From IMG/VR virus record IMGVR_UViG_3300021592_000001, positions 1-64,000 of that record: 64,000 nt of DNA. The stretch is one strand, 5' to 3'. The notes under the pieces are model-generated. The model was not told where the DNA came from. It saw only the letters and a program-made list of their open reading frames with translations, and searched no databases. Shown piece by piece: positions 7,943 through 40,330 of this stretch. The translations under genes and the position numbers were made by a program. Each line of letters opens with the position of its first letter. Positions within the stretch are counted from its first letter, which is position 1. Source of the stretch: a virus. Taxonomy: Duplodnaviria > Caudoviricetes.

Positions 7943-7947
7943 AAGCA

Positions 7948-8891: not shown

Positions 8892-8914
8892 AAAAGTAGA
8901 AGAAGGAGGGAGCA

Positions 8915-10917: not shown

Positions 10918-10937
10918 GCTTAGAAAGGAGGTTATAG

Positions 10938-11348: not shown

Positions 11349-11364
11349 GAAAGGAGGTAATAGA

Positions 11365-11757: not shown

Positions 11758-11777
11758 GTTTAAGAAAGGAGGCAAAA

Positions 11778-12834: not shown

Positions 12835-12854
12835 TAATATAGGGGGATGCAAAA

Positions 12855-13058
12855 ATGGCAAGGAAGAGTAATAAAGAGAACAAGAAGATCTTGTCCCATT
12901 CCTTCGTTGGGCAAGCATTCGAAGGTTATTCCCTGTGCTTCAAAGGATGTAGAGACACGTTGGAAGATGTGTTCGGAAAGAAACCAATTCCTCCTAGCCA
13001 AATGACGAAGTTGTTATGGGAGTATATTATGAACAAGGAATCTAATATAAGGAGGTAA
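12855..13058 (+). CDS. Stand-alone SWIB/MDM2-like protein, paralogue of the 8484 C-domain
   Basis: Near-identical DNA and protein over LEDVFGKKPIPPSQMTKLLWEYI. Confidence 0.7.
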   Translation: MARKSNKENKKILSHSFVGQAFEGYSLCFKGCRDTLEDVFGKKPIPPSQMTKLLWEYIMNKESNIRR

Positions 13059-13330
13059 TATTGTGAAGAAGAAAAAGAAAGGAGAATGGGAAGAATGGGT
13101 AAAACAGGTATGCGGTATTGAGAGAAAGAAGCGGTGTCCGTCTGTTTCGTGGACACATCTGGATGTAATAGAGGAGGCGAACTCGAAAGGAATTGAAATG
13201 TCTGAAAAGGAGGCAGAAAGTTTATTGGAAGAGATTGGAGATAGTCTTGTCGAGAACATGCTCAGCGTTGGCTGGCATGTAATTGGGGAGGCTATTGACA
13301 AGCGGTATAAAAATGCCCGTGACTGAAAAC

Positions 13331-13404
13331 CCTTGTAAACCCTTAAAATAATACAGTTTTTTTGGGTAAGTTTGCTTGCATATTGTTTTATAATATGTTA
13401 TAAT
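13331..13404 (+). promoter_or_regulatory. Sigma70 promoter with conserved upstream box, driving the rimK-polX-ligase operon
   Basis: TTGCAT(13376)-17-TATAAT(13399), extended TG; AAACCCTTAAAAT 39 nt before -35. Confidence 0.8.
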
Positions 13405-13425
13405 ACTACCAGAAAGGAGGCAGCT

Positions 13426-14304: not shown

Positions 14305-14347
14305 TTTCAAAATTTCAAGATTAACATCAAAGGAAAAGGAGGTTATC

Positions 14348-14653
14348 ATGGCTAAGAAAGAAAAATTAGTTGTTCACAAAGGGGATATTATAAAGGGAAA
14401 AACAAGTGAAGGTAAAACTGTAAAGGGGACAGTATATAGAGTGAATAATATAAAGGGCTTCTGTAGAATAGAAACGAAGGCAGGAGAGAGATACAGAGTA
14501 GAGGTAGAGGATATACTCTCCATCAAGCAAGCAAGAGGTTCAGCTCCTAAGGAGCTGAAGCCAAAGAGAAGTAGTAAGAAAGAAAAGGAGAGTAAAAAAG
14601 CAAGAGCAAAGACGAAGGCAAAAGCAAAAGCAAAGAAAAAGAAGAGAGGATAA
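14348..14653 (+). CDS. Basic histone-like protein: SH3/KOW-like domain plus KAKAK tail
   Basis: Highly Lys-rich tail; N-domain paralogous to 8484. Confidence 0.6.
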   Translation: MAKKEKLVVHKGDIIKGKTSEGKTVKGTVYRVNNIKGFCRIETKAGERYRVEVEDILSIKQARGSAPKELKPKRSSKKEKESKKARAKTKAKAKAKKKKRG

Positions 14654-16300
14654 ATGAAAGTTCCCAATAGCAAAGTCGCTTCACTCCTTAGACAGATTGC
14701 TTACCAATATAAGCAGTCTGGAGACAAATGGAGAGCTATTGCCTACGGTAAAGCCTCCAAGACGGTCAGAGATCTTGCTTATCCGCTGACCGATGTAGAC
14801 ATTTCAAGTCTCAGCGGTATAGGAAGTTCGATAAAAGAAAAGATTGAAGAGATACTGGAAACAGGCAAATCTTCTTTGCTGGAAGAACTGCAAAAGAATG
14901 GTGTGCCTGCGTCTCTTGAAGAGCTAGAGAAGTTACAGGGAGTTGGACCGAAGACTGCAATGAGGTTGTGGAAGGAATACGGTGTTAAGTCTCTCCAAGA
15001 TTTGGAGGAGAATAAGGCTCTTCTCAAAAAAGAGCCTGAAATTGCGGAAGCCTTAGCGCTATATAAGAGAAGAAGAGAAAGGATTCCTGTCTACCTAGCA
15101 GATAAAGCTCTTCAGGAGATTTGTGCAATCCTTCGGTCTGGCGGATGCAAGTTCGTATCTCAAGCGGGTTCTTGCAGAAGGAAAAAGTTCCTCGTTCGAG
15201 ATTTAGATGTCGTAGTTGCTATTTCTGACAGTAAGAAGAATAAATTTATGAAATACGTGAGGAAGAACTTGAAAGTTGTAGCAGGAGGAGAATCTAAGTT
15301 GATATTCGAATATACGGTATCTGGTGAACCTAGGAATGGTGATATTGTTATGGTAACTCCAAAGGAAGCTGGCAATGCTATCAACTATTTGACTGGCTCT
15401 AAGCAGTTCAACATCGCAATGAGAAGACTAGCGCTCCGCAAAGGGTTTACGGTGAACGAACGAGAGACCAGAAGCAAATACAGCGGCAAGCGGATGCCTT
15501 CTGCTACAGAAGAAGACCTGTTTGATGTTTTGGATATCCCGTTCATTCCTCCAGAATGTCGCATAGACGGAACTGAAGTCGGAAAAGACCTTTCAGATCT
15601 GATTACACATGGAAGCGTTAAAGGCGATCTGCATATTCATACTACCTATTCAGATGGACTTATGAGCCTCAAGATGCTGGTTCGCTCTGCTAAGGAAGCT
15701 GGTCTTAAATTTGTAGGTGTAGCAGATCACTCCTATTCGCTCGGCGTGACTGGAGGGATGAAAGCTAAAGATGTGCCACGAATTAGGGATAAAGTTAAAT
15801 CTTTGCAATTTCCCGTCTACTTTGGCGTAGAAGCAGACGTTAAAGTGGACGGAAGCTTGCCTTACAAAAAGAAACTGCTTTCTGAGTTTGACTATCTGAT
15901 TTTAGCTACTCACAGTTCTCCAGACAGGAATCTGGAAAGCAGGCTGATTAGGGCTATAAAGAAAGTTGCTGGAGATAACCGAGTAATATTGGCTCATCTG
16001 ACTAACAGAAAGAGTGACCGTGAAGCGGCTGAAGCTAACTGGGACAATGTCTTTAAGATTTGCAGGAGGTATGATGTTGCTATTGAGATAAACGCTCAGC
16101 CAGATCGTATGGATCCTCCTGCTGACCTTATAAGGCGAGCAAAGCGGTTCGGATTGAAGTTCGTCATCAATTCTGACACTCATGATACAAGCATTAATCT
16201 ATATTGGGGAGTCATACAAGCCAGAAAGGGACTTCTGGAGAACCGAGACGTCATTAATACGTCTCATAAGTCCTTTAGGAAGTGGCTGGAAAGGAGGTGA
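14654..16300 (+). CDS. polX: DNA polymerase X family with C-terminal PHP domain
   Basis: HhH GIG/GVGPKTA, GSCRR..DLD, TGSKQFN; PHP HIHT.YSDG, DHS, NSDTH. Confidence 0.95.
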   Translation: MKVPNSKVASLLRQIAYQYKQSGDKWRAIAYGKASKTVRDLAYPLTDVDISSLSGIGSSIKEKIEEILETGKSSLLEELQKNGVPASLEELEKLQGVGPKTAMRLWKEYGVKSLQDLEENKALLKKEPEIAEALALYKRRRERIPVYLADKALQEICAILRSGGCKFVSQAGSCRRKKFLVRDLDVVVAISDSKKNKFMKYVRKNLKVVAGGESKLIFEYTVSGEPRNGDIVMVTPKEAGNAINYLTGSKQFNIAMRRLALRKGFTVNERETRSKYSGKRMPSATEEDLFDVLDIPFIPPECRIDGTEVGKDLSDLITHGSVKGDLHIHTTYSDGLMSLKMLVRSAKEAGLKFVGVADHSYSLGVTGGMKAKDVPRIRDKVKSLQFPVYFGVEADVKVDGSLPYKKKLLSEFDYLILATHSSPDRNLESRLIRAIKKVAGDNRVILAHLTNRKSDREAAEANWDNVFKICRRYDVAIEINAQPDRMDPPADLIRRAKRFGLKFVINSDTHDTSINLYWGVIQARKGLLENRDVINTSHKSFRKWLERR

Positions 16301-16388
16301 TAATAGGATGTGATAGCTTCAATCTTATTAGGCAATGAGGAATCATTATTAACAATAATAATCCTTTTAGTAAAAGGAGGTAAGTAAT

Positions 16389-17138
16389 ATGTTAAAGAAA
16401 TTAAGACACCATTTGTCCGAAGCATTAAAGATTGCTGACAGGCTTGAACTGGAAGAGGAAGAGCTTGAGGAGCTCGAAGAAGAAGAAGAGATGGAAGAAG
16501 AAGAGGAAGAGTCTAAAGGCAAACGTAAAGGTAAAGCTAAAGGCAAAGGCAAAGGTAAGAAGGTTGAAGAGGAAGAAGAAGAAGAGGAAATGGAAGAGGA
16601 AGAAGAAGAGGCTGAGGAAGAGGAAGCTGAAGAAGAGTCTGAGGAAGAAGAGTTGGAAGAAGAAGAATCAGAAGAGGAAGAAGAGTCTGAGGAAGAAGAG
16701 GAAGCTGAGGAAGAAGAGGAAGAAGAGGAAGCTGAGGAAGAAGAAGAGTCTGAGGAAGAAGAGGAAGAAGAAGAGGAAGCCGAGCTAGCTCTGAAGAAGG
16801 GAATGAAGGTTCGAGCCTACAAAGGTAAACAAGCCTTTGTAGGTCTCGTCCAAAAGGGTGGAAAGAAGCCAGTGATTAAGTTCAAAGGCAAAGGGAAAGA
16901 CCTCAGTGGATCCTTTTCGCCAAAAGATCTGAAGAAGCACAAAGTTGAAATTGTTCCAACTGTGGATATGCTCGATGAAGATGATAAAGTCAAAATGAGA
17001 TTCGGCAAGAAGGTTCTGACAGGGACTGTCGTAAAAACGACTAGGAGGAAAGCGACCATTCGATTCTCTTCTGCCAAGAAATACAATGGAGATTACGGCA
17101 ATAAGGACTTGGAAGAGAAAGCTACGCTGTTATCGTAA
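16389..17138 (+). CDS. Extremely acidic poly-Glu protein with two C-terminal SH3/KOW-like basic domains
   Basis: ~75-residue near-pure E tract from GAA/GAG repeats; AAGGAGG SD. Confidence 0.8.
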   Translation: MLKKLRHHLSEALKIADRLELEEEELEELEEEEEMEEEEEESKGKRKGKAKGKGKGKKVEEEEEEEEMEEEEEEAEEEEAEEESEEEELEEEESEEEEESEEEEEAEEEEEEEEAEEEEESEEEEEEEEEAELALKKGMKVRAYKGKQAFVGLVQKGGKKPVIKFKGKGKDLSGSFSPKDLKKHKVEIVPTVDMLDEDDKVKMRFGKKVLTGTVVKTTRRKATIRFSSAKKYNGDYGNKDLEEKATLLS

Positions 17139-17196
17139 GCCTAAAACAGGGACGGGGGATTTCATTCCCCCTCCCCATATTTAGGAGGGAGCAACT

Positions 17197-17904
17197 ATGA
17201 AATCGATCAAATTAAAGGAAACTATAGAAGAAGGGATCCCATTTCTGTCGATTAGTATAAAATCCCTTCCTCTTAAAATCGCAAAGAAAGCAGGTTTTCA
17301 AAAGAAGGGTAAGAGATGGTTTATGGAAAAGCCATCTGACTTCTCTGAGCTTTCCTCGAAGCTAGAGAAGTACGGGTATAGAGCTGTTATAGATTACAAA
17401 CCCGTGAAGCCAAAATCTACCAACAAAGTAAAACGTCTTCTCTCTGTCTATGAAAAAAGAAAGAAAGAAATGGAGGAAGCGGAAAAGAGGCTGAAAGAGA
17501 TAAGGGCGAAGCTGGAAAAAATTGTAAAGAAGCAGGGTGCTAAGCGGAAGCCTGGAAGTGACGATTCTGTCCTAATCGTCGGTGACACAAGAATACATTA
17601 TTGTTTTGTAACGGGGAGAAGAACATGGAAAGGAGAAGAGGAAGGCGTAAAGTGGTTGATGAAACATGGGTTTAAGAACTGTATAAGAAAAGCTATCAAT
17701 AGAGATGCCTGGGATGATCTAAAAAAAGAAGGGAGAATACCTGTTAATGTGATCTCGAAAGTTGAGAGGAGAGCAGACCCTTCGTATCGCTTATTCATTC
17801 GCAAGGTCAGTGAACTTGTTTGTCCGAATTGTGGGACGGATGTTTCCCGTAGAGATAAATTCTGCAGGGAATGTGGTAACAAATTGAAAGGAGGTTTATC
17901 ATGA
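17197..17904 (+). CDS. Basic coiled-coil protein with C-terminal zinc ribbon
   Basis: CPNCG..KFCRECG. Confidence 0.65.
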   Translation: MKSIKLKETIEEGIPFLSISIKSLPLKIAKKAGFQKKGKRWFMEKPSDFSELSSKLEKYGYRAVIDYKPVKPKSTNKVKRLLSVYEKRKKEMEEAEKRLKEIRAKLEKIVKKQGAKRKPGSDDSVLIVGDTRIHYCFVTGRRTWKGEEEGVKWLMKHGFKNCIRKAINRDAWDDLKKEGRIPVNVISKVERRADPSYRLFIRKVSELVCPNCGTDVSRRDKFCRECGNKLKGGLS

Positions 17905-18539
17905 AAAATCCTATTGATCTTGAAGACTTGAAGGTTTCTAAAGAGTGGCGAAAGACCGAAGACTTTGAGGCGGTCTTCGCTTTTATAAAAGCATCAAGAC
18001 CTATACGTTTAAAAAGAGCCTCTGTAGATACTCTTGAGGAGTGTCCATTTTCCGGCTGTAAGGAGCAACTCTCCGAAATCGTTCTGGAAAGTCCTGACGG
18101 CAAATGGAAATTTCAGGACAGTCTTGAACACCTGATAATGATGCATGGGGTTGTTCCTTGTGATGAATTTGTGTCTGATGCAAAGTCATGGGTGAACTCG
18201 TCGAAGCTTTCTTTACGTGATATTGTAGCTATTGATATAATTACAGACAGAATCCTTATAGAGTCTGAAACTGTTGAGGAGATTCTGTCGTCTCTCCCTC
18301 CAGGCAAAGGAATGGACGCAAAACGTTCAATAGAGCGTATCATAAAGGAGTTGGGGAATCTCAGAGATGCAATGGAGACGATAACTAACGGAGTTAAGCA
18401 AGAAGAAGAGGAATCCGAGCCTGAAGCCAAGCAGGAAAAAGAGGAGCCTGAACCTGAACCTGAAGAAGAATCCGAAGCTACCAGTCTTGACGACGTGGAA
18501 AGAGTTGGGAAAAAGAAAAAAGTTAAAATCAAAAAGTAG
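17901..18539 (+). CDS. Hypothetical protein with acidic tail
   Basis: SD, overlap with upstream stop. Confidence 0.6.
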   Translation: MKNPIDLEDLKVSKEWRKTEDFEAVFAFIKASRPIRLKRASVDTLEECPFSGCKEQLSEIVLESPDGKWKFQDSLEHLIMMHGVVPCDEFVSDAKSWVNSSKLSLRDIVAIDIITDRILIESETVEEILSSLPPGKGMDAKRSIERIIKELGNLRDAMETITNGVKQEEEESEPEAKQEKEEPEPEPEEESEATSLDDVERVGKKKKVKIKK

Positions 18540-18601
18540 TCGGGAGTCAAATCGTTGCTCCCTCCTCTCGGCGGAGCCTCGCTCCGCCGATGCTCCCGAC
18601 T
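18538..18601 (+). promoter_or_regulatory. Structured leader upstream of ligase carrying an anti-SD
   Basis: AGTCGGGAG/CTCCCGACT closing stem, inner TCGGCGGAGC/GCTCCGCCGA hairpin, unpaired CTCCCTCCT; SD GGAGG follows immediately. Confidence 0.55.
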
Positions 18602-18614
18602 GGAGGTTAGTTTT

Positions 18615-19961
18615 ATGTATGGATTTGCTAAGGGAATGTCTCCTGTTGAGAGAGCGTTTAAGACTCTGGACTGTCTGGAAAGGGAGTCAGGCAGGAACAA
18701 GAAGCTTGACATTCTACAGTCAGCTTCCGATAATAAGATACTGAAAACCCTGATAGTGAAGGCTTACGACTGGAGAGTGAGATACGGTATAAGACCGTCT
18801 GTTCGAGTGGGTAAGATTAAGACCAGCTCAGTTTCAGAAGTAAATTACAAAAGGTTTCTGAAACTTACTGACAGATTGGCTAAAGGCTTGTCTGGAAACA
18901 AGGCAATCGCTGCTGTGGATAAATTCTTTTCCAGATGTTCTGACCTGGAAAAGAAGTGGTATTCGAGAGTGCTGAATCGAGACTTGAGAGTAGGATGTGC
19001 GTCTAAAACTTTCAATACAATATGGGAAAACTTGATTCCAGAGTTTGGAGTTCAACTTGGAATACCGTTCGAAAAGTACCTTGAAAAGGGGAAGTTGAAG
19101 TTTCCTCTCTATGTCGAGCCTAAATACGACGGAACACGAGGCGTATTTGTGAAGAAAGGCGATAGCGTGTCCTGTTACAGCAGACGTGGAACTGATATGA
19201 CTGAGATTGTTGATTTTGCAGTGAAGCCGCTATCGAAGGTCATGCCTGACGGTTTGCTGGATGTCGAGTTCCTCGCTGCATGGTCTAAGAAGGACAAGAA
19301 GAAATTTAAGGACGTTTGGTCGAAAACGCAGACGCTGTTGAAGCGAGGGAGGAAGAAGGAAGGCTATGTGGCGGATAAAGACTGGAAGGAATATGTTAAA
19401 AGCAATATAAGAATCATGGCCTTCGACTTGGCCAATCCAGATGTATTTAAATCAAGTAAAGGATACACCGATCAGACACCTCTCAGAAAGAGGAAAATCA
19501 GGCTAAAGAAACTTGTAAAGAAGCTCCCAGAGTTCTCAAGAGCGGAACTCGTTCCTTTCACTAAAGTCTTCAGCAGGAAGGAACTTGATAGATTGTATAA
19601 CAAGTATATAAAGGAAGGATACGAGGGAGTGATGATAAAAGACCCATCATCTCCGTATTCCATAAGCCTTTCTAATTATCGTCCCAGTTATTGGATCAAA
19701 AGGAAGAAGTTTGTGACCAATGATTACAAGATAGTCGCTGTAAATGAAGGTTCTGGAAGACTGAAAGGCACACTGGGATCACTAACGGTATTGAATGAAG
19801 ATGGAGAGAAGCTCAATGTTGGAACAGGACTGAGCGATAAGGAAAGGGATCTCCTCTGGAAAAAGAGGAAATCCTTAATAGGGAAGTATATAGAGGTAAA
19901 AAGGCAGAGTGGTTCTTCCAAAAAGAGATTTCCATCTTTCAGGATCAGAGAAGATAAGTAA
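18615..19961 (+). CDS. lig: ATP-dependent DNA ligase
   Basis: EPKYDG (motif I), EGVMIK, W.K.K, OB-fold VGTGLSD, RFP. Confidence 0.95.
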   Translation: MYGFAKGMSPVERAFKTLDCLERESGRNKKLDILQSASDNKILKTLIVKAYDWRVRYGIRPSVRVGKIKTSSVSEVNYKRFLKLTDRLAKGLSGNKAIAAVDKFFSRCSDLEKKWYSRVLNRDLRVGCASKTFNTIWENLIPEFGVQLGIPFEKYLEKGKLKFPLYVEPKYDGTRGVFVKKGDSVSCYSRRGTDMTEIVDFAVKPLSKVMPDGLLDVEFLAAWSKKDKKKFKDVWSKTQTLLKRGRKKEGYVADKDWKEYVKSNIRIMAFDLANPDVFKSSKGYTDQTPLRKRKIRLKKLVKKLPEFSRAELVPFTKVFSRKELDRLYNKYIKEGYEGVMIKDPSSPYSISLSNYRPSYWIKRKKFVTNDYKIVAVNEGSGRLKGTLGSLTVLNEDGEKLNVGTGLSDKERDLLWKKRKSLIGKYIEVKRQSGSSKKRFPSFRIREDK

Positions 19962-23018: not shown

Positions 23019-24092
23019 ATGAGAAATTTAACTGTGGTAGTCGGGGGACAGTTCGGTAGCGAAGGAAAGGGAAAGGTAGTCGCACATCTATGTCGAAATT
23101 ACAGATTTGATGCATGTGTGAGAGTAGGAGGACCGAATTCAGGACATACTGTCACTCTGAACGGTAGAAGGACAGTCCTAAGACAAGTCCCTGCTGGAGT
23201 AGTGAATCCTCATACGCAACTCTTTATAGCGAGTGGATGCTTGGTGGATCCTGAAATTCTACAAAGAGAGATTAAGATGCTAGGTCTGTCGCCAGACAGA
23301 CTGAAGATCGACAGAAACGCAAGTCTCCTGGACAGGTCTGACGCTGAATTCGAGAGAAGAATTGGACTTGAGGGTAGAATTGGTTCTACAGCTACAGGAG
23401 TTGGCTCTGCGGTTATCAAGAGAATCCTGAGGAAAGACAGCAGTATCATTCTCGAAAAAAGGATTGATGACTATCCTTTCCTTATTCCGTATCTTGCTGA
23501 CGTCTCCAAGGAGATTAACCGTCTGTGCGATGCGGGGAAGAGCACGGTAATCGAAGGAACACAAGGCTTCGGTCTATCCCTTTACCATTCTTCTTATTAT
23601 CCCTTCGTCACAAGCAGAGATGTAACTGCTTCTGGTTTTCTGAGTGAAGTCGGAGTTAGTCCCCTGCTTGTAACAGACATTATCCTTGTCATCAGAACAT
23701 TTCCTATCAGAGTAGGAGGGAATTCTGGAGACCTTCCTAATGAGATTGACTGGGAAACAGTCAGAAAGGAAAGCGGTTATCCTCACGAAATTAAGGAGCT
23801 TACTTCTGTCACAGGTAGAGTTCGTCGAGTTGCACGACTTGATATCGGTCTCGTGAAGAAAGCTGTTCAGATTAACAGGCCGACTTTTATTGCTTTGATG
23901 GGAGTCGATTATCTTGACTTTAAGAACAGAGGAGTGAGAAGTCTTGAAAGTCTCTCTTCTAGGACTCATGACTTTATTACTTCCCTTGAAAGGGAAACGG
24001 GTATCCTCGTATCTTTGATAGGGACTGGTCCGAGTGACTTTGAGATAATTGATCTAAATGGGAGAAGCAGAAAAGGAGGGAAAGAAGTATGA
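23019..24092 (+). CDS. purZ: PurZ0-type N6-succino-2-amino-deoxyadenylate synthetase (adenylosuccinate synthetase homologue of the Z-base pathway)
   Basis: GGQFGSEGKG (Ser replacing the PurA catalytic Asp), IRTFPIRVGGNSG, ELTSVT.RVRR, and Asp retained in LMGVDY (GTP-type); short archaeal-like 357 aa. Confidence 0.85.
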   Translation: MRNLTVVVGGQFGSEGKGKVVAHLCRNYRFDACVRVGGPNSGHTVTLNGRRTVLRQVPAGVVNPHTQLFIASGCLVDPEILQREIKMLGLSPDRLKIDRNASLLDRSDAEFERRIGLEGRIGSTATGVGSAVIKRILRKDSSIILEKRIDDYPFLIPYLADVSKEINRLCDAGKSTVIEGTQGFGLSLYHSSYYPFVTSRDVTASGFLSEVGVSPLLVTDIILVIRTFPIRVGGNSGDLPNEIDWETVRKESGYPHEIKELTSVTGRVRRVARLDIGLVKKAVQINRPTFIALMGVDYLDFKNRGVRSLESLSSRTHDFITSLERETGILVSLIGTGPSDFEIIDLNGRSRKGGKEV

Positions 24093-24781: not shown

Positions 24782-25183
24782 ATGAGTGAAATTATGGACA
24801 GACGAAAATTCCTGAAAACAGCACTTACGGTAGGTGCATCTGTCCTGTTTGATCTCCCGTCGCTTTTTGACTATCTCAAGGCAGAGGATGGATACAGAGA
24901 ATCCTTGCGTCAGATCAACCACTTTGTTGCAGAGGAGCTTGAAAAGATAGTCTATAGCTTTGAAATGAACGATAGCCGTCTCAGGTCAAAATTACGTGAC
25001 TCCATAAGTCGTAAGCTCTCACAGATGAAGTCGGAAGGAAAGCTGATTGATTACCGTGTGATTTGTGATGAGACTAACAACACGCCAGAGGTGATAGATA
25101 ATCACGGATTGGTTGTAGACGTTATTGTAAAGATATCTTCAGGATATCCTTACTGCAAGGCGACATTCTCAACATTGAGGTGA
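24782..25183 (+). CDS. Stand-alone tail-sheath C-terminal-like domain preceded by twin-arginine-like signal
   Basis: MDRRKFLK.. hydrophobic; FEMND..LR ... DYRVICDETNNTPEVIDN..LVVDV.VK. Confidence 0.7.
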   Translation: MSEIMDRRKFLKTALTVGASVLFDLPSLFDYLKAEDGYRESLRQINHFVAEELEKIVYSFEMNDSRLRSKLRDSISRKLSQMKSEGKLIDYRVICDETNNTPEVIDNHGLVVDVIVKISSGYPYCKATFSTLR

Positions 25184-25189: not shown

Positions 25190-25498
25190 ATGCGAATACT
25201 ATATTCAAAAAGAGGAACTGGTAAGACAAGAGAGGCAATCTCGATCGCTTCCAAGACATCTTCTCATATAGTCTGTGAAGGGAAGAAAAGAGCCTCTGAA
25301 GTCTTTTCCATGGCAAAGGAGATGGGAATGGATATTCCATTCCCACTGACCTATGATGAGTTTGTAGAAGGTAGGTTCTATGGCATGAGCGTAAAATCAT
25401 TTGTCATTGAAGATGTTGACCTGCTGATTCAGAGGTTCGCTCGAGGCATTCCAGTCAAATTAATAACTATAACAAGGGAGGGAGAAGATCATGAATAA
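25190..25498 (+). CDS. Small degenerate P-loop protein
   Basis: RGTGKT; VIEDVD. Confidence 0.55.
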   Translation: MRILYSKRGTGKTREAISIASKTSSHIVCEGKKRASEVFSMAKEMGMDIPFPLTYDEFVEGRFYGMSVKSFVIEDVDLLIQRFARGIPVKLITITREGEDHE

Positions 25499-25838
25499 AC
25501 CGTCCAGTCAAATATTTCTATTTAACGCATGGGTTGATAATACCAATTATCTCCTGAACAAAGATTTACTTAAGATGAAGGCTGTCCGTTTTTGCAGAGA
25601 TGTCGGCTTGACTATAGTCTCTACGGATGAGTTTGTTTTCCCTAAAACTTCAGGCATCACTATGACGTTCATCATAGCTGAGTCAAGTCTATCGATTCAT
25701 ACATGGCCAGAAATGAACTACATTCGCATTGTACTGGATTCATGCAAAGCCTTAGAACCTTTGGAGGTATCGGAATCCCTTCGCAGGAACTTTGAAATTC
25801 CTGCAGAGCGATCTGATTTGAAAGTAATTTTATGGTAA
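25491..25838 (+). CDS. Pyruvoyl-dependent S-adenosylmethionine decarboxylase (SpeH/class 1b) homologue; substrate uncertain
   Basis: IIAE|SSLSIHTWPE self-cleavage motif and downstream catalytic Cys (DSCK); His after ES replaced by Ser. Confidence 0.85.
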   Translation: MNKPSSQIFLFNAWVDNTNYLLNKDLLKMKAVRFCRDVGLTIVSTDEFVFPKTSGITMTFIIAESSLSIHTWPEMNYIRIVLDSCKALEPLEVSESLRRNFEIPAERSDLKVILW

Positions 25839-26279
25839 GTGACCATGAAGGGGAGAAGGAAAGAAAAATACTATCTGAAGGCTTACTTCAAGCCTTTCGA
25901 TGTCAAGAAGACTGCTAGATTTGTCAGGAAGGTGAGGAAGAAGCTAGGTCTTTCGCAAGGAGAACTTGCAATCCTATTCGGCAGGGCAAGGTCTACACTT
26001 TCCAAGTGGGAGAACGGTCAGGCTATTTGTCCTGGAGACATAATTCTAGGTCTTCAGGACTTGGTTAAGATGGTAGAGAGAGGGGAATTTAAAATAAAGC
26101 GTAAGAGCCATAAGCTCAAGATCGTGGACGAGCGAAGGAAGATTGAAGAGGAAGAGGAAGAGGAACTGGAAAGTGTAGAATCTGTCCTGGAGAGAAAGTC
26201 CTTGGAAGAGGAAGAGGAAAAGGAAGACTTGGAGGTAGAAGAGTATATTGAAAGACTTAAGAAGGGAGGTAGTTTATGA
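25839..26279 (+). CDS. XRE/Cro helix-turn-helix regulator with acidic tail
   Basis: RKKLGLSQGELA..FG.ARSTLSKWENG..P. Confidence 0.85.
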   Translation: MTMKGRRKEKYYLKAYFKPFDVKKTARFVRKVRKKLGLSQGELAILFGRARSTLSKWENGQAICPGDIILGLQDLVKMVERGEFKIKRKSHKLKIVDERRKIEEEEEEELESVESVLERKSLEEEEEKEDLEVEEYIERLKKGGSL

Positions 26280-26674
26280 AATCACTTCTCGTGTCTCTAT
26301 TGTTTGTGACTGGGATAAATCTGGCTGGATCGGACGGGAACATGATTCCGTGGCCGAATCTGGTTGGAGTTGGGATGGCTGTATTGTCAATGTTAATAAT
26401 GGATGATGGAGGGGAAATCGAATGAGACAGGAGTACTCTGTAGATGAATGGAGATCGATCATTCAGAGGCTGTTAGACGTGACACACCTGATTCTACAGA
26501 AAAAGTATAAGTTTATTGCAGAATGGAACATAATACCGAATGCTGTCTTCATACCATATAAGATGCTGCCTGAAAAGGTAAAAGAATTGGAGATAGCTGA
26601 ATTGAGTGTCGTTATAGGCTATAACATAGACGACATACACGTCGGGTTGATTTCTTAGAAAGAGGAATTCCATA

Positions 26675-27736
26675 ATGGATTGTGATTACAGTCCTATATT
26701 CCAGTCCAAGACCAAAGAGAGCGATATCTACGACGAGTTTGTCGAGTTTTCGAATCTGCAGTATGCTACACTTGACTACGATCCGTTCCATCCGATGCTT
26801 GTGAAGCTGCAAGAGAACCTGGAGGAAGAGGAATCTCTTTGGATGTCAACATTGTATATGGCTTTCTACAACATAGGCTCTTGTTACTTTGCGTTTCTGA
26901 GGAATCCGAAACCTCTATCGGAACTGGATGATGTTCTCGGGAAGCTTCCCATCGGATTACAGAGAAGGAATCTGAGGGGTGGTGAGGTGATAAAATACTT
27001 CCACCGCTTCAGGAAGAAGGTAAAGCCTTATGGAAGTATCAAGAACTTTCTGACTCACAACTTTACAGGTTCTAAGGAGAAGGACTGGTTCATACTGTTA
27101 AAGAATTTGAACTCTGTCTGGGGTAATGGCAGATGGGCATCTTTCACTCTTGGAGAGATTTTTCAGAAGGTCAACAAGTTGCCTGTGCTCCCGACAGATA
27201 TAATGAATGAAAACAGTAGCGGTCCGAGGACAGGACTGGAACTGTTGATGGGAAAGGCGAAAGGAAAGACCAAAAAGGAGAAGCTGGCAGATCTGAAAGC
27301 TAAGGCCGACGCTCTCTTTAGGATGGTTCGTCCGAGAATTAAGACGAACATATTCTACCTTCCTAAGAATCATTATGACTATGGTATGATGGAAAGTCAG
27401 TTATGTGACTTTAATTCTATGACTAAAGGTCTCTACTATACAGGCAGAGACATAGATCGGGATCTGGAGCGTATAATAAGAACGCTGAGGGTCGCAGCTG
27501 ATGTTGGAATAGATATAAGACCAGCGAAGCGACTGTGGGAGATAAGGAGGGAAGTGTTCCCCTCCGAGCTCCTTGGAGAACTACATGGATGGTATAAGAG
27601 ACATACCTATGCAAAGAAGTTCTACAAAAACTTCGGGATAATAGCTAAGAGTCACAAGGAAATACGTGACTATCTTGGAATATGGAGAGAGGATAGACTA
27701 GATGACAGGAAGAAAATTGCTAGGGGATTATGGTAA
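26675..27736 (+). CDS. Amino acid:DNA transferase (aGPT-PPlase clade 2 / ADDT), thymidine hypermodification enzyme
   Basis: DYDP, RRNLR, GNGRWA, SSGPRTGL, ESQLCDFNS..G.YY.G.DID, W..R...FP..LGE motifs. Confidence 0.85.
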   Translation: MDCDYSPIFQSKTKESDIYDEFVEFSNLQYATLDYDPFHPMLVKLQENLEEEESLWMSTLYMAFYNIGSCYFAFLRNPKPLSELDDVLGKLPIGLQRRNLRGGEVIKYFHRFRKKVKPYGSIKNFLTHNFTGSKEKDWFILLKNLNSVWGNGRWASFTLGEIFQKVNKLPVLPTDIMNENSSGPRTGLELLMGKAKGKTKKEKLADLKAKADALFRMVRPRIKTNIFYLPKNHYDYGMMESQLCDFNSMTKGLYYTGRDIDRDLERIIRTLRVAADVGIDIRPAKRLWEIRREVFPSELLGELHGWYKRHTYAKKFYKNFGIIAKSHKEIRDYLGIWREDRLDDRKKIARGLW

Positions 27737-28952
27737 CCTACTCCACGAAGTTCTATCCAGGACGGATATGAAGATTGAAATAAATGACGGGAAGAGAGTG
27801 AAGAAAGTTTGCGTAATAGTAGGTTCTTCACGCTCAGGTTCGTCATTACTGAAGAGAGTTCTGAGCAACAGCTTTGACGTGGTATCCCTGTCAGGAGAGG
27901 AAGAGCCTTTCTACATCCTGTCTAGGAATGGATTCTCATTTTCCAGTGACAGCGATAGTTTCAATTCAATTAGGAATGCTGACCTTATCCATAAGTTGTT
28001 TTATAATGACTTTAGTGTTAGAGATACTAAGATTAGTTTGGAAGATATCTCGTTTAGATGGAAGAATAGACTGCTTCTGCAGCTTCCTCGGTTTATGATT
28101 GATGATTGTTTTGTTAGTAAAGTAGATGAGCTGTTGAAGAACGTTTACGATAAGTTCGAGTCAGATGAGAAGTCCTACGAGCTCAAGTCAGCAATCTTCA
28201 TAAAGAAGCTTCTCGGGAAGAGAGCTGGTTATTACGATATTATTGCTTCCAATTCAGGAGTTACATTTGAGGAGACATTCAAAGTAGAAGAGCCTCCGTT
28301 CGTGATCCCCCCATTCGGAAGGATGTTCAGAGAGAGCGAGGACTTTGACAAGGTCTTCTTATTCAAGACACCTCAAGACTGCTATCGGATTGGGATATTC
28401 GAACAACTCTATCCCAATGCAGAGATATACTACGTATGTCTCCTTCGTAACTACGCCTCTGTAGTTAATGGGTTGATGGATGGATGGCTGTGCGATTATG
28501 GATTCTTTGCTCACAATCTAAGCATGCACGGGGAATGTCTAGACATAGATGGGTACACGAATGTGAAGCCGTACGGAAAAATATGGTGGAAGTTTGATCT
28601 ACCTCCGAACTGGCATCACTTTAAACGAAAGCCCTTGTTAGAAGTTTGCACCAATCAGTGGGTTTCGGCCTACCGCCATATAATTGATAATGTCGTGAGA
28701 AGGAAAAAGAATCATCTAATCGTCAGGTTCGAGGACTTTATTCTTAATCCACAAGAGCAGACAGATAGAATAACTGAGTTCTTGGGTATATCACCTATTG
28801 TAGTACATGACTTACCATTAGTAATGATCACGGAGACTCCGAAGCTAAAACGTTGGAAAAAGCGAGAGGATCTGCTGATTCCTCCTCCAGGAGAAGTAAT
28901 AGATATAATGGAGATACTAAGATATGACTTGGACATCGAAACTTGGCTATGA
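27702..28952 (+). CDS. PAPS-dependent sulfotransferase-fold protein
   Basis: 5'-PSB loop IVGSSRSGSSLL, LFKTP, 3'-PB LLRNYASVVNG, IVRFEDFI.NP...ITEFLGI. Confidence 0.85.
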   Translation: MTGRKLLGDYGNLLHEVLSRTDMKIEINDGKRVKKVCVIVGSSRSGSSLLKRVLSNSFDVVSLSGEEEPFYILSRNGFSFSSDSDSFNSIRNADLIHKLFYNDFSVRDTKISLEDISFRWKNRLLLQLPRFMIDDCFVSKVDELLKNVYDKFESDEKSYELKSAIFIKKLLGKRAGYYDIIASNSGVTFEETFKVEEPPFVIPPFGRMFRESEDFDKVFLFKTPQDCYRIGIFEQLYPNAEIYYVCLLRNYASVVNGLMDGWLCDYGFFAHNLSMHGECLDIDGYTNVKPYGKIWWKFDLPPNWHHFKRKPLLEVCTNQWVSAYRHIIDNVVRRKKNHLIVRFEDFILNPQEQTDRITEFLGISPIVVHDLPLVMITETPKLKRWKKREDLLIPPPGEVIDIMEILRYDLDIETWL

Positions 28953-29841
28953 CCCACACTGTCCGAAGGAGGGAGAATTCTATTGTGACAGTGAATGGGG
29001 TGAGCTTCAAGTTGTTCTGCTCCTGTTTTTGAGTAAGGATGCGTTCGAGGCAATCGGAGATAACTATAAAGATGCTATGTTCATTTCCAAACCGAATTAC
29101 GAATTGGTTATGGAAGAGTTCTGGAACTATGTTAATCTTCTTAAGAAGCTGGGTATCAGAGTTCTTGTTCACGAAGTTGATGAATTCTTCCCCAACATAT
29201 TTTATGCGAGGGATCTGGCTGTCATAACACCAGACGGACGCTGTATTCTTGCGAACCCAAAATATAGGATCAGAAAGGGGGAAGAGAAGGTTTTATATAG
29301 GATTCTTCTTTCTACCTATAATAGTGATGAAAGGAAGTATATTTTTGCTCGCAGCACAATGGAAGCGGCAGATCTGTTCTGGTTGAACAACAGATCTGTT
29401 ACAGTTTCCGTGGGCAATAGAACTTCGCCCAAGTTCGCTGACGAATTGAAGACTCTATATCCAGACCTGGAAATCCGACTGTTTGAAGCACTGCCAGAAC
29501 AAGTTCCTCAACATATTCTCGGTCATAAACATATCGTTTCTCATGACTGTATAATTTTGAGGAGTGAGTTAGGAGGCTGTGAAAGTCTGGGATTCAAAAA
29601 AATTATCCATTTGAAGGAGAATCATGAAGTCGTCAATAGATTCTCTATGAATATTGTAACTATCGATTCTTATGAGATAGTGATGCCCGATGGGTGTGAA
29701 GAGACGAAGAGGATTTTTGAGTCTCATGGGATAAGATGTCATACCGTCTATATAGAAGAAATACTGAAAATGGGAGGAGGACTGGCATGTATGACATTAC
29801 CTCTAAAGAGGAAAGAGTATTTCCTTAAGAAAGGAGGGTAA
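28924..29841 (+). CDS. Amidinotransferase / arginine deiminase / DDAH (pentein) family enzyme
   Basis: PNIFYARD, R.GEE, MEAAD, GNRT, His (QHIL), C-terminal GGGLACMT.P catalytic Cys. Confidence 0.9.
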   Translation: MTWTSKLGYDPHCPKEGEFYCDSEWGELQVVLLLFLSKDAFEAIGDNYKDAMFISKPNYELVMEEFWNYVNLLKKLGIRVLVHEVDEFFPNIFYARDLAVITPDGRCILANPKYRIRKGEEKVLYRILLSTYNSDERKYIFARSTMEAADLFWLNNRSVTVSVGNRTSPKFADELKTLYPDLEIRLFEALPEQVPQHILGHKHIVSHDCIILRSELGGCESLGFKKIIHLKENHEVVNRFSMNIVTIDSYEIVMPDGCEETKRIFESHGIRCHTVYIEEILKMGGGLACMTLPLKRKEYFLKKGG

Positions 29842-34388: not shown

Positions 34389-34970
34389 ATGGAAGGGTAT
34401 AAACCACAGAGAATAAGAGTAGCAATATCTGGTCCTCACGGTGTAGGTAAGAGCACTCTTGCAAGGAGAATTGCTGACGAGCTCTGTATATGGTATATAC
34501 CTGAAGTCGCAAGAGAACTTTTGGATAAAGCCCGAGACAGGAATTGGAAGGAATTTAGCGCTGAAGAGGCTTGTGAGTTTGAAAAAGCTATAATCCATTC
34601 GCATCTGTTCTACATAAAGCAAGCTAATCGGATGAACACAAGCTTCGTATCCGACCGCAGTGTCTTTGATGCATTTGGCTATATAGATTGGCAAGAGGAA
34701 TGTCGGGGTATGAAATTGGGTATAAATTACCATCGTATTAAGATGAGAGATTCTTATCTACCTTACATAGATAAGATTCTATTTTTTAAGTTCAGAGAAG
34801 AAGATAATCCTGACGAATCACAATGGTGGTTCCAGAACAGACTCGAAAAATTTTTCTCTTTCGACCCATTCCCTGATATCGTTGTTGAGATTGACAGAAA
34901 GACAGAATTTGAGGAAATTATTAGAATAATAACTTCAACAGGAAATTCATACCAAGCTCAAAAGAGATAG
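34389..34970 (+). CDS. P-loop nucleotide kinase (AAA_28/NadR-like)
   Basis: GPHGVGKSTL, IPEVAR, SDRSVFD..Y. Confidence 0.8.
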   Translation: MEGYKPQRIRVAISGPHGVGKSTLARRIADELCIWYIPEVARELLDKARDRNWKEFSAEEACEFEKAIIHSHLFYIKQANRMNTSFVSDRSVFDAFGYIDWQEECRGMKLGINYHRIKMRDSYLPYIDKILFFKFREEDNPDESQWWFQNRLEKFFSFDPFPDIVVEIDRKTEFEEIIRIITSTGNSYQAQKR

Positions 34971-37177: not shown

Positions 37178-38086
37178 ATGATAAAATCTGTTTTAGTTGT
37201 CGGAGATGTAATGCTAGATACCTATATTATAGGGGAAGTCAACAGGCTCTCTCCTGAAGCTCCAGTTCCTGTCTTGAGAGTGACCAGAGAACTTAATTAT
37301 CTTGGTGGAGCAGCAAATGTTGCAAGGAACTTAAGAGAATTGGATATGGACGTCACACTAGTTGGCTTAATTGGAAAAGATAAAACGGCAGACACTCTCC
37401 TTAAATTGCTGAACAAGTATGCAATAAATAATTTATTATTGAGCAAAGAGGAAGTCATAACAACTCGGAAAATCAGGCCGATGACCAATTATGGCAAAAC
37501 CCAATTACTAAGGATAGATGAAGAAAATGCAGTTAAAGTTAATATTGACGAAATTGCGGATGAAGTCAAGAAAATAGCTGCTAAATCTCAATTCATAGTA
37601 GTTTCAGATTATGCAAAGGGGGTAGTTACTCCATTGCTGATGCGGATGGTAGATTCTGTAAATGTTCCTATCGTATTAGATCCAAAACCGATAAATTCTG
37701 AAATATATAAAAAGATGAAAAATATAATGGTTTCAACTCCGAACACATCCGAACTGAAAGCTATGACTATTCACCCAACTACATATTCAAAGTATGTTTT
37801 TGAAACAAAAGGACCTGAAGGGATATGTGTTCATCGTAAAAATAAGAGTTCTTTCATAGTAAAACCTGAACGAGTTGAAATCTTCAATGTTATAGGAGCA
37901 GGAGACGTCGTAACAGCAGTCGTAGCCAAGTGTATTTCTGCGGGGATGACAATTGAGAAAACTGCTGCAATAGCATGTGCTTGCGCTTCCAGAGCGGTTA
38001 CAGAACCATGGACTGCTATAGTTGACAAATCACATTTCTATAACGTCTCAAACGAATATAAAGAAATGGAAACATGGGAAGTTTAA
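37178..38086 (+). CDS. RfaE/HldE domain I-like heptose-7-phosphate kinase (PfkB family)
   Basis: VVGDVMLD.Y..G.V.RLSPEAPVPV, GGAANVA.N, SDYAKG, DPK, TPN, GAGD. Confidence 0.9.
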   Translation: MIKSVLVVGDVMLDTYIIGEVNRLSPEAPVPVLRVTRELNYLGGAANVARNLRELDMDVTLVGLIGKDKTADTLLKLLNKYAINNLLLSKEEVITTRKIRPMTNYGKTQLLRIDEENAVKVNIDEIADEVKKIAAKSQFIVVSDYAKGVVTPLLMRMVDSVNVPIVLDPKPINSEIYKKMKNIMVSTPNTSELKAMTIHPTTYSKYVFETKGPEGICVHRKNKSSFIVKPERVEIFNVIGAGDVVTAVVAKCISAGMTIEKTAAIACACASRAVTEPWTAIVDKSHFYNVSNEYKEMETWEV

Positions 38087-38128: not shown

Positions 38129-38917
38129 ATGAAAGTTAATGTAGTTTATGCAAAGTCGTTCTTTGGCCTCGACGAAGTTGAAGATGATTCCGTAGATTTG
38201 ATTTTCGCTGATCCTCCATACGGAATTTCCAAGGATACATTACTATCCAATCCACAGATTGGCTACGAACCAAAAAAGGGAAACTGGGATTTAGTCAGCA
38301 AAGAGTATCTAAAAGAATTTGCGGAACACCTCGGAGCTGATGCCTTGCGAGTACTGAAGCCCAGCGGAAGCATAGTCGTGTCGGGAGTATTCGGCTCCCT
38401 TAGGCCATATTTTGCGAATTTTGTATCTCTCGGTTTTAAGTTTCGTCATCATATCGTATGGCACAAGACGAATCCTGCTCCCTCGGTGCACCGTAGATCC
38501 TTTGTTTATTCCAACGAAATTTTATTATGGTTCAGTAAGACAAATAAATGGTATTTTGATTATGATTTATCGAAAACATACAACAAAGGTAAGCAGCTTC
38601 ACGACGTATGGGACATTCCATCTGTCAGAAAACAGGCAGGAGTTACAAGGAAACCTAAGGAACTGATGGAGAGAATCGTTAGAATTCTCTCCCCGGAAGG
38701 AGGGTTAGTTCTCGATCCTTGTGTCGGTTCAGGAACGACTATCGAGGTTGCTAGAAAATTCCGCAGAAAGTTCGTTGCCTACGAAATAGGCAACGAACAG
38801 CTCAAACTACTAAGGAAGAAGAAATTCAATGTGGTAAATCACAAAATAAAGGTTCGTCTGAGACCGAAGATGAGAAAGAGAGGAGTGAAACTCAAACACT
38901 TCCACTTTTGTGATTGA
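38129..38917 (+). CDS. DNA amino-methyltransferase, beta class
   Basis: DLIFADPPY ... KP..LMERI ... VLDPCVGSGTT. Confidence 0.9.
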   Translation: MKVNVVYAKSFFGLDEVEDDSVDLIFADPPYGISKDTLLSNPQIGYEPKKGNWDLVSKEYLKEFAEHLGADALRVLKPSGSIVVSGVFGSLRPYFANFVSLGFKFRHHIVWHKTNPAPSVHRRSFVYSNEILLWFSKTNKWYFDYDLSKTYNKGKQLHDVWDIPSVRKQAGVTRKPKELMERIVRILSPEGGLVLDPCVGSGTTIEVARKFRRKFVAYEIGNEQLKLLRKKKFNVVNHKIKVRLRPKMRKRGVKLKHFHFCD

Positions 38918-38925
38918 GGATAAAG

Positions 38926-39516
38926 ATGTTAAGAGTAAAGAAGAATAGAATGGATCCCGACAATTACAATAGTACATTCAAAAATTGGCCGCCTTTGGTA
39001 AGATTTGGTCGCTGGGTCTATGGTATTTGGATAATTGGTAATAATTATAAGTCAAAAAAGAAGTACTATGGTGAATATCCGCCTACTTATCTGAAAAGGA
39101 TAAAGGCTCTTTTTCCTAATGCTCGGAATGTTCTCCATCTTTTCTCTGGTGTTGTTGAAAAGGGATTGTGGTCAAATGAGGTTACTCTAGATATTAGAGA
39201 AGAATTGAACCCAGATATCTGCTGTGATGCTGAAGAACTGAGCAAGCATGTAAGGGGTAGTTATGATCTTATTTTGGCTGATCCACCTTATTCTGGAGAA
39301 GATGCAGCTCATTACGGACGGCCTTTGATAAATAGGTTTAAAGTAATAACCGAGTGCGTAAAAATCTTGACCTCTGGCGGGTATTTGGTTTGGCTTGATC
39401 AAGTTTTTCCGATGTTCAGAAAATCTGAATTAAAATTGATTGGCACAATAGGTATAATCCGTTCGACTAATCATAGAGTTAGAACAGTATTTGTGTTCAA
39501 AAGGTTTAAAAGGTAG
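38926..39516 (+). CDS. Small DNA amino-methyltransferase-like protein
   Basis: YYGEYP, LHLFSG (motif I), DLILADPPY. Confidence 0.8.
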   Translation: MLRVKKNRMDPDNYNSTFKNWPPLVRFGRWVYGIWIIGNNYKSKKKYYGEYPPTYLKRIKALFPNARNVLHLFSGVVEKGLWSNEVTLDIREELNPDICCDAEELSKHVRGSYDLILADPPYSGEDAAHYGRPLINRFKVITECVKILTSGGYLVWLDQVFPMFRKSELKLIGTIGIIRSTNHRVRTVFVFKRFKR

Positions 39517-39526
39517 TAGGAGAAGA

Positions 39527-40330
39527 ATGAAAAAGAAAAAGAAAAATAAAGCATCTAGCAAGATAAAATTATATGTGGGGGACTGCATTGCCGTTATGAA
39601 AACGAAAATAGATGATGAAAGCATTGATTTGATAGTCACTTCCCCTCCTTACAATTGCGGAATAAAATACGATAATTACAATGATTCGCTCCCTAAAGAA
39701 AAATATTATAGGTGGTGCAAAAATTGGTTAAAAGAATGCTACAGAGTATTAAAAAATAATAGAAGAATAGCTATTAATGTTCTACTTAATAAAGGGAGTA
39801 GTAGAGAGGGTAGAGAACAGCCAGTAGTAGAATTCTGTAATTTATTAAAAAAAGTTGGTTTTTCTTTAAATAATATAACTCTATGGATGGATGAACATAG
39901 GGTAAAGCATACTGCTTGGGGCTCCTGGAAGAGCGCTTCGGCTCCTTATATATTTAATCCTTACGAAGTTATAATTATGGCTTCTAAGGGAAAGTGGGAG
40001 AGAAAAGATAGAGGAGTGTCTGACATTACAAGAGATGAATTTATGGAATGGGTTACTGGACGGTGGAGATTTAATCCCGAGCACAGAAGATTGAACCCTG
40101 CTCCTTTTCCAGAAGAATTGCCTAAAAGATGTATAAAACTACTAAGTTATGTTGGAGATACAGTTTTAGATCCTTTTGTAGGTTCAGGAACTACTTGTGT
40201 CGCAGCTAAAAAACTGAATAGAAATTGCATAGGAATTGACATTTCAAAAAAGTATATAAATATTGCGAAGAAGAGAATAAAGGAACAGAAGTATGGGAGG
40301 CTTAAATGCAGGAAGATATTCAAGGTATGA
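39527..40330 (+). CDS. DNA amino-methyltransferase, beta class (SPPY, probably N4-cytosine)
   Basis: VTSPPY, PAPFPEEL, VLDPFVGSGTT. Confidence 0.9.
   Translation: MKKKKKNKASSKIKLYVGDCIAVMKTKIDDESIDLIVTSPPYNCGIKYDNYNDSLPKEKYYRWCKNWLKECYRVLKNNRRIAINVLLNKGSSREGREQPVVEFCNLLKKVGFSLNNITLWMDEHRVKHTAWGSWKSASAPYIFNPYEVIIMASKGKWERKDRGVSDITRDEFMEWVTGRWRFNPEHRRLNPAPFPEELPKRCIKLLSYVGDTVLDPFVGSGTTCVAAKKLNRNCIGIDISKKYINIAKKRIKEQKYGRLKCRKIFKV

Follow-up and report, generated by a model that had tools for sequence, protein, structure and literature searches.

Three overlapping plus-strand genes in the window, the 64-kb stretch of DNA analysed here (positions 1 to 64,000 of the IMG/VR virus record IMGVR_UViG_3300021592_000001), may represent a new branch of phage thymidine hypermodification, in which an ADDT is fed by, or paired with, a cassette of a sulfotransferase (ST) and a guanidino hydrolase; we give this explanation about an even chance. 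The source record has a length of 188 kb and is 73% complete according to CheckV, which identifies the window genome as that of a jumbo phage. The trio comprises an amino-acid:DNA transferase (ADDT or AADT) of aGPT-Pplase clade 2 with 353 amino acids (aa) (26675-27736; PF18724, 58 bits against a cut-off of 26.2), a sulfotransferase-fold enzyme of the 3'-phosphoadenosine 5'-phosphosulfate (PAPS) type with 416 aa (27702-28952; Sulfotransfer_3, 48.6 bits against 27), and a DDAH-like pentein with 305 aa (28924-29841; ADI PF02274, 39 bits, and DDAH_eukar, 36 bits). The overlaps amount to 35 nt between ADDT and ST and 29 nt between ST and pentein. An AdoMetDC/SpeD-like pyruvoyl decarboxylase of 115 aa (25491-25838, plus strand; AdoMet_dc, 56 bits against 25) is encoded upstream, and all four proteins exceed the Pfam cut-offs. 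A sequence-only reading of this DNA had already placed these genes and their overlaps, with the decarboxylase about 0.8 kb upstream; open reading frames (ORFs) and Pfam scores agree with it, and its calls of an ADDT, a sulfotransferase and an AdoMetDC-like protein held in searches with hidden Markov models (HMMs). Its assignment of the third gene to the amidinotransferase family stands at the level of the pentein superfamily only; by sequence, the product is DDAH-like. Megablast of the region against GenBank phages gave no match, and a promoter and terminator scan of the region gave a signal no better than chance.

The product of 26675-27736 is classified by its sequence as an ADDT, with a predicted role in the transfer of an amine or amino acid to activated 5-hydroxymethyldeoxyuridine (5-hmdU). 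Besides the Pfam domain, which has its single match in the genome at 27011-27415, it matches phrog_6364 with an E-value of 1e-18, and it is basic, with a pI of 9.45. Its closest relatives, at 49-50% identity, are the ADDTs of three classical clusters (L105-L107; L numbers denote the compared loci), which contain ADDT, two P-loop kinases, HMUDK_hel, and thymidylate synthase (TS), while no ST was found in these records. Identities of 26-31% were seen with actinophage aGPT-Pplase2 proteins from ParB, TET/JBP, and kinase clusters. In a tblastn search at E 1e-5, no characterised AADT phage (M6, ViI, PhiW-14, PaMx11) was retrieved, only actinophage homologues, and no fusion proteins of ADDT came up when they were searched for. 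TET/JBP or TS genes lie near the relatives of this ADDT. Donors known for ADDTs are glycine, serine, glutamate, and putrescine (PMC8989533).

The AF2 model of the ST reached a pLDDT of 90, its top PDB matches are all sulfotransferases, and its structural neighbours in the Atlas (TM 0.79-0.85) are Sulfotransfer_3 clusters. By fold as well as by sequence profile, the best PDB matches are the sulfotransferases of CurM and of olefin synthase (OLS), with a weak match (E ~3e-5, TM 0.40-0.55). The SRSGSS motif of the ST aligns with PRSGST of both, corresponding to the 5'-phosphosulfate loop, and R44, G46, and S47 of this loop are invariant in 30 homologues. A second motif, YIHLTR, aligns with YIHLVR of the OLS sulfotransferase, including a match at R249, and is likewise kept across the 30 homologues. 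Judged from these motifs, the protein is a PAPS-type sulfotransferase with a predicted PAPS-binding loop. No APS kinase for PAPS supply was found in the window genome. The family displays many invariant acidic residues, and pI calculations revealed that ST and pentein proteins are mostly acidic, with exceptions such as the ST of two related phage loci, L015 and L016 (pI ~9.2), and the mildly basic pentein of L016 (pI 8.4). Since these exceptions are basic, there is still room for an action on DNA.

For the pentein, a profile of 13 sequences searched against the PDB matched the dimethylarginine dimethylaminohydrolase (DDAH) of P. aeruginosa (PaDDAH) over the full length with an E-value of 9e-29, and matched AGAT only with the C-terminal ~60 residues (positions 220-278; E 1.6e-9). 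D97, R117, E147, R166, H197, and C289 of the pentein align with D66, R85, E114, R132, H162, and C249 of PaDDAH, and all six, the triad C289, H197, and E147 as well as D97, R117, and R166, are invariant in the 13 homologues of the family. In the PaDDAH structure 1h70, we take the Cys/His/Glu to be the catalytic triad, Asp66 to bind the guanidino group, and the two arginines to hold the alpha-carboxylate of the substrate. Both carboxylate-binding arginines being kept, the substrate of the pentein is probably arginine-like and not agmatine. The model (pLDDT 89) aligned with PaDDAH at a TM of 0.86 and an rmsd of 2.7. The best NCBIfam model is dimethylargininase (DiMArgaseDdah), at 47 bits far below the equivalog cut-off of 450, and the protein is thus assigned by sequence to a distinct subfamily and not to DDAH at equivalog level. 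Because its gene is coupled to ST, the N-omega substituent of the substrate, if there is one, is probably not methyl. Taken together, hydrolysis of an arginine-type guanidino group is a more likely activity of the pentein than amidino transfer.

The genomic distribution was derived from an alignment-based IMG/VR scan with the ST as bait, which yielded 18 viral loci, whose ORFs were compared by tblastn and clustering; locus searches with single sequences of ST and pentein gave no loci, so that alignments were needed. In total, 620 ST homologues of ~40-48% identity occur in jumbo-phage-sized contigs and in bacteria. A guanidino hydrolase adjoins the ST in all 18 viral loci and in at least 60 of the 80 bacterial loci (the bacterial counts are lower bounds, ORF calls being crude in high-GC loci). 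The hydrolase beside the ST is the pentein in L003, L005-L014, L016, L017, L019, L021, and L022, and an arginase-family enzyme in L015 and L018. The arginase-like protein of L015 keeps the DxHxD metal motif and has arginases and N-omega-hydroxy-arginine amidinohydrolase as PDB relatives. The invariant unit is therefore ST plus guanidino hydrolase, in which two unrelated hydrolase folds are interchangeable. This is a typical indication of a guanidino-hydrolysis step in the pathway, and it argues against amidino transfer.

The bacterial loci belong mostly to Oxalobacteraceae and other Burkholderiales, in addition to metagenome-assembled genomes of candidate phyla radiation (CPR) bacteria. Their typical order is a HemK/PrmC-like methyltransferase (at least 39 loci), ST, and an arginase-family gene (at least 60 loci). 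Examples of this array are L004:7306-10051 and L031:7274-9994, with ~60 more among L023-L102, where the ST is ~41% identical; hybrid sensor kinases and an NMT1/SsuA-like binding protein are often found at its flanks. Moreover, two proteins in which ST is fused to DDAH/ADI, of 788 aa (L122:10001-12367) and 766 aa (L123:2045-4345), are encoded on metagenomic contigs that are apparently bacterial, and DNA-modification genes are absent around the fusions. The L122 fusion adjoins a large metallophosphatase and a TPR protein, and the L123 fusion a second sulfotransferase. Occurring in bacteria without a DNA-modification gene as well as in fused form, ST and hydrolase constitute a self-contained cassette that was recruited by phages, rather than an enzyme pair dedicated to DNA. 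Hydrolase relatives, acidic proteins, and fusions all fit a small cationic substrate that is handled by the pair as a unit.

An amidinotransferase in place of the hydrolase, as proposed by the sequence-only reading, would act on an amine adduct (for example putrescinyl- or ornithinyl-thymine, with the AdoMetDC-like enzyme serving as decarboxylase) and give a guanidino, agmatine-like, and perhaps sulfated thymidine. Foldseek indeed placed the polyamine amidinotransferase HsvA at the top for the pentein, with SxtG and AGAT close behind and with HsvA, PaDDAH, SxtG, and AGAT all at E ~1e-15, so the fold search alone does not separate DDAH from amidinotransferases. The Cys/His/acid triad is also common to amidinotransferases, and phage AdoMetDC/SpeD homologues have been proven to be neofunctionalised arginine or ornithine decarboxylases (PMC9992855, PMC10407285). 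However, in the profile search DDAH leads by 20 orders of magnitude and matches along the whole protein, the pentein has the size of DDAH rather than the ~350-420 aa of amidinotransferases, and the decarboxylase is not co-conserved. In L015 and L018 as well as in bacteria, arginase-family hydrolases replace the pentein, and the place of a transferase cannot be taken by a hydrolase. We therefore regard this alternative as very unlikely, and the amidinotransferase identity was not retained. Likewise, an agmatine deiminase or agmatinase acting on agmatine made by the decarboxylase was rejected as the main interpretation, given the two conserved carboxylate-binding arginines of DDAH and the decarboxylase not being co-conserved.

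Within the viral loci, the cassette was never found alone; it is accompanied either by ADDT or by TS-like and nucleotide-kinase genes, and ADDT, TET/JBP, P-loop kinases, and TS homologues appear repeatedly as its neighbours. In type A loci (L003, L005-L014), the order is a guanylate-kinase-like gene, a 197-aa protein, a 167-aa P-loop kinase, ST, DDAH-like, TS-like paralogue 1, an APH-like kinase, and TS-like paralogue 2, and no ADDT is present. This array, conserved in jumbo phages and located for example at L003:6369-13275, has the appearance of a pathway that modifies a pyrimidine at the nucleotide level with the same ST/hydrolase cassette. TS-like paralogue 1 is divergent, with 302 aa and no Pfam match, no PDB relative was found for the 197-aa protein, and the 167-aa P-loop protein upstream of the ST was rejected as an APS kinase, resembling a generic nucleoside monophosphate kinase. 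In type B loci (the window and L015-L022), ADDT stands directly beside ST, and a DDAH-like gene is also present in L016, L017, L019/L021, L022, and the window. Altogether, ADDT adjoins the ST in 8 of the 18 viral loci (L015-L019, L021, L022, and the window), and ADDT and cassette occur together in at least seven distinct phage contigs of several ST lineages, often with overlapping reading frames. The trio is thus co-conserved across diverse phage contigs, and the adjacency of ADDT, ST, and hydrolase is far beyond chance.

A link to DNA modification is displayed by L016, a phage record of 79 kb that is 100% complete according to CheckV, with the order primase-helicase, ParB_N, Tet_JBP, Ploopntkinase3, ST, DDAH-like, ADDT, and Dam. 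The array is located at 7732-13644, with a C5-cytosine methylase just beyond it on the opposite strand; neither TS nor an HMUDK helical domain was found in this genome. ParB-dependent T-dioxygenases together with P-loop kinases and AADTs form the published layout of post-replicative T-hypermodification (PMC13229309), and the L016 cassette is inserted midway in this layout. In L017, a YfbR-like deoxynucleotidase and two P-loop kinases precede ADDT, ST, and pentein, and in L015 and L019, HMUDK P-loop and helical genes lie within the same array. Origin of the parts also differs: ST and pentein of the window are 43-50% identical to those of type A cassettes and only 23-33% to those of other ADDT loci, and they group with the type A and bacterial part of a quick tree with long branches. 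As cassette and ADDT are closest to different sources, the two seem to have been joined independently more than once, which argues for a functional link.

A different view would keep the ST-hydrolase cassette outside DNA modification, as an auxiliary small-molecule, protein, or glycan pathway that merely lies near ADDT in an early-gene region; arginine or polyamine metabolism and the sulfation of a metabolite or of glycosylated phage proteins would be options. The bacterial cassettes standing alone and flanked by sensor kinases, the fusions on apparently bacterial contigs without a DNA-modification gene, the mostly acidic ST and pentein proteins, and the frequency of polyamine genes in phages (PMC9992855) would all be in agreement with this. 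It does not account well for the repeated placement of ADDT beside the cassette in those phage contigs and ST lineages with their overlapping frames, nor for phages that lack ADDT and yet hold the cassette among TS-like and nucleotide-kinase genes, nor for the position of the L016 cassette inside a ParB/TET-JBP/kinase/ADDT array. We consider it distinctly unlikely.

For thymidine hypermodification, 5-hmdU has to be provided and activated. A gene for a TS-family enzyme of 241 aa (43303-44028, plus strand; Thymidylat_synt, 53.8 bits) lies 14 kb downstream of ADDT. It resembles archaeal-type TS below the cut-off (105.7 against 174.55), and its translation contains the catalytic Cys within PPCL and the Asn that specifies uracil within FPAN, making it a candidate dUMP hydroxymethylase that would supply 5-hmdU. 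Regarding activation, a P-loop or HMUDK kinase is present in five of seven distinct architectures with ST and ADDT, and HMUDK_hel was detected in the records of L015, L017, L018, and L019. In the window record, a custom HMM gave a weak P-loop match only (187301-188002, E 6e-4). Within the window, candidates for the kinase step are a PfkB-family kinase (37178-38086) and an AAA_28 P-loop protein (34389-34970).

In the main rival explanation, the ST itself is the activating enzyme: it would place sulfate on the 5-hydroxymethyl of 5-hmdU, either in DNA or at the nucleotide level, and sulfate would replace pyrophosphate as the leaving group. ADDT or arginine would then attack, and the DDAH- or arginase-like enzyme would cut the N-omega-linked arginine back, leaving an aminomethyl or ureidomethyl group. 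The nearest solved relatives of the ST, CurM and OLS, turn a hydroxyl into a leaving group by sulfation, neither the helical nor the P-loop domain of HMUDK was found in the 188-kb record, and the closest ADDT relatives sit with HMUDK and TS in records without ST. Further, the ST is basic in L015 and L016, and the chemistry of DDAH, converting N-omega-alkyl-arginine to citrulline and an amine, fits the trimming step. On the other hand, most phages with ST and ADDT encode a kinase (HMUDK_hel in L015, L017, L018, and L019; Ploopntkinase3 directly before the ST in L016; two P-loop kinases before the ADDT in L017), and the ST keeps its guanidino hydrolase in bacteria and in fusions without a visible hydroxymethyl-pyrimidine pathway. 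In addition, the similarity to CurM/OLS is weak and the window genome is only 73% complete. This makes a sulfate leaving group rather unlikely in our view. The ST as a general replacement of the kinase was down-weighted for the same co-occurrence of kinases in most of these phages.

According to our preferred explanation, an ADDT working with the ST-hydrolase cassette, the TS-family enzyme at 43303-44028 would make 5-hmdUMP, so that DNA is built with 5-hmdU. The hydroxymethyl group would then be activated, a step for which the relatives use a P-loop 5-hmdU DNA kinase, and ADDT would bring in a nitrogen nucleophile derived from arginine in exchange for the leaving group. The cassette may make this nucleophile from L-arginine and PAPS, or may trim and sulfate an arginine adduct on the DNA. 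In a concrete version, the ST would make N-omega-sulfo-arginine, the hydrolase would release a small N-nucleophile, and ADDT would couple it; this version is suggested because both types of hydrolases have relatives cleaving N-omega-substituted arginines (DDAH and N-omega-hydroxyarginine amidinohydrolase). The final base would be a thymine with an ornithine/citrulline-type or an N-sulfo-amino side chain. That PAPS-dependent sulfation takes part in base hypermodification, either with sulfate as the leaving group on 5-hmdU or with an ST-built N-sulfo-arginine that is cleaved for ADDT, is a tentative proposal that we judge to be somewhat improbable.

Several points weigh against the preferred explanation. 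We infer every substrate and product, as well as the hydroxymethylase, the activation step, and the donor, and we know of no precedent for arginine or a sulfo-amine as an ADDT donor. The sequence of 43303-44028 does not separate a hydroxymethylase from a plain thymidylate synthase. No match to PF18723 or PF18748 was found (E<=1) in the 188-kb, 73%-complete record, so that the classical activation step is missing. The 3'-phosphate motif R-x7-S of the ST is partly canonical, with the Arg present and the position of the Ser taken by the invariant N256/G257. Finally, DNA-modification genes are absent from the vicinity of the cassette in bacteria and of the fusions, and the native substrate of the cassette need not be DNA-related.

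The AdoMetDC-like gene upstream of the trio ends 837 nt before the ADDT start, with a gene for an XRE-type helix-turn-helix protein and a 78-aa ORF in between. Its product keeps the Glu-Ser (E|S) self-cleavage site, AESSLSIHTWPE aligning with SESHLTIHTWPE of the T. maritima enzyme, and its NCBIfam score of 44.7 stays under the equivalog cut-off (75.65). None of the related loci yielded a homologue; the gene stands beside the trio in the window only. Phage homologues of AdoMetDC are known as polyamine enzymes (PMC9992855, PMC10407285). The link of the gene to the module is possible but weak, and contrary to the earlier proposal of a four-gene pathway, it is probably a separate polyamine gene.

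Other genes of the surroundings deserve mention. A PurA/PurZ-like gene (23019-24092, plus strand) lies 2.6 kb upstream of the module; its P-loop reads GSEGKG, and a Ser occupies the position of the catalytic Asp of PurA. Against the NCBIfam models it reaches 333 bits for archaeal-type PurA, short of the cut-off of 368, and 227 bits for PurZ, where the cut-off is 300. Should the protein be a PurZ, this phage may have altered bases on both sides of the A:T pair. A 133-aa ORF (24782-25183, plus strand) matched only the C-terminal domain of a phage tail sheath (31 bits; phrog_23); it is located in the DNA-metabolism region, distant from structural genes, and L008 and L014 have longer homologous ORFs at ~9 kb upstream of their ST. 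More DNA-related genes at 13372-19961 and 38129-40330 (plus strand) encode a RimK-like ATP-grasp ligase, a PolX-PHP polymerase, an ATP-dependent DNA ligase, and two N6/N4 DNA methyltransferases, the latter with one 200-aa ORF between them.

Phage DNA carrying hypermodified thymidines is protected from restriction and CRISPR nucleases, and these modifications are also a source of DNA-labelling enzymes. To our knowledge, all described pathways tailor the base with pyridoxal phosphate (PLP), radical SAM, flavin, acetyl-CoA, or amidoligase enzymes. A module of ST and an arginine-type guanidino hydrolase predicts new base chemistry, in which PAPS would possibly serve DNA modification for the first time. 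If true, DNA would contain a thymine not seen in it before, either sulfur-containing or derived from arginine, and the function of a widespread bacterial ST/guanidino-hydrolase cassette would be revealed. The analysis exposes this uncharacterised two-enzyme cassette, ST plus a DDAH- or arginase-like hydrolase, as common in Burkholderiales and CPR bacteria, and L016, where six genes form a compact operon and the phage genome is complete, is the best candidate for heterologous reconstitution.

In the literature, the clusters of M6, ViI, PaMx11, SP10, and PhiW-14 are described as a 5-hmdU DNA kinase and an aGPT-Pplase2/AADT with tailoring enzymes, the known partners being radical SAM enzymes, PLP decarboxylases, flavin lyases, acetyltransferases, amidoligases, and GATases, and sulfotransferase, arginine, deiminase, or amidinotransferase are not mentioned (PMC8989533). 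A paper of 2026 on T-dioxygenases names GATases, P-loop kinases, and AADTs only, and no sulfotransferase or deiminase/arginase (PMC13229309). The metavirome survey used the 5-hmdU DNA kinase as bait, so that kinase-poor variants like that of the window could have been missed (PMC8989533). Full-text searches gave no sulfotransferase in connection with thymidine hypermodification, phage 5-hydroxymethyluracil, or hypermodified phage DNA; the family-defining paper of 2013, which may mention such neighbours, was outside their coverage. It is Iyer et al. who in that year reportedly defined the aGPT-Pplases. The earlier statement that no pathway pairing ADDT with a sulfotransferase and an amidinotransferase has been described thus agrees with the literature searched. 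The combination of ADDT, sulfotransferase, and guanidino hydrolase is absent from the literature searched; that its chemistry is unprecedented is put forward with reserve, as a possibility with the odds somewhat against it.

Compared with known systems, the components show different degrees of relatedness. The pentein shares with PaDDAH (PDB 1h70, 3rhy) the fold (TM 0.83-0.86), the triad, the equivalents of Arg85, Arg132, and Asp66, and a similar size, but is only ~20% identical, carries an extra N-terminal segment of ~50 residues, and is encoded by a gene coupled to ST. The ST has the PAPS 5'-phosphosulfate loop and the YIHL-R motif in common with the activating sulfotransferases of CurM and OLS (PDB 4gbm, 4gox), whose sulfation of a hydroxyl was the source of the leaving-group concept; in contrast to them, it is free-standing and not a domain of a polyketide synthase, and the phage protein has an insertion of ~100 residues. 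Like the neofunctionalised phage AdoMetDC/SpeD proteins, the window decarboxylase is a small class 1 AdoMetDC-like proenzyme with an E|S site; its gene is not kept beside the trio in related loci.

At the level of pathway logic, D-cycloserine biosynthesis offers a parallel, in which arginine is hydroxylated at N-omega, the arginase homologue DcsB releases hydroxyurea, and coupling to activated serine follows. Here, there is no hydroxylase; the ST would be the modifier and activated 5-hmdU in DNA the acceptor. By pure analogy, with an arginase-family enzyme able to take the place of the pentein, arginine could carry a small N-nucleophile that is released for substitution. Also among the closest known systems are the clusters of M6, ViI, PaMx11, SP10, and PhiW-14, with which the window shares an ADDT of the same Pfam family, a TS-family gene (TET/JBP in relatives), and a compact array in the DNA-metabolism region, and whose kinases have their counterparts in the HMUDK or P-loop kinases beside the ADDT of the window's relatives. 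Unlike in these clusters, no HMUDK was found in the window genome, and the tailoring partners of the ADDT are a sulfotransferase and a guanidino hydrolase.

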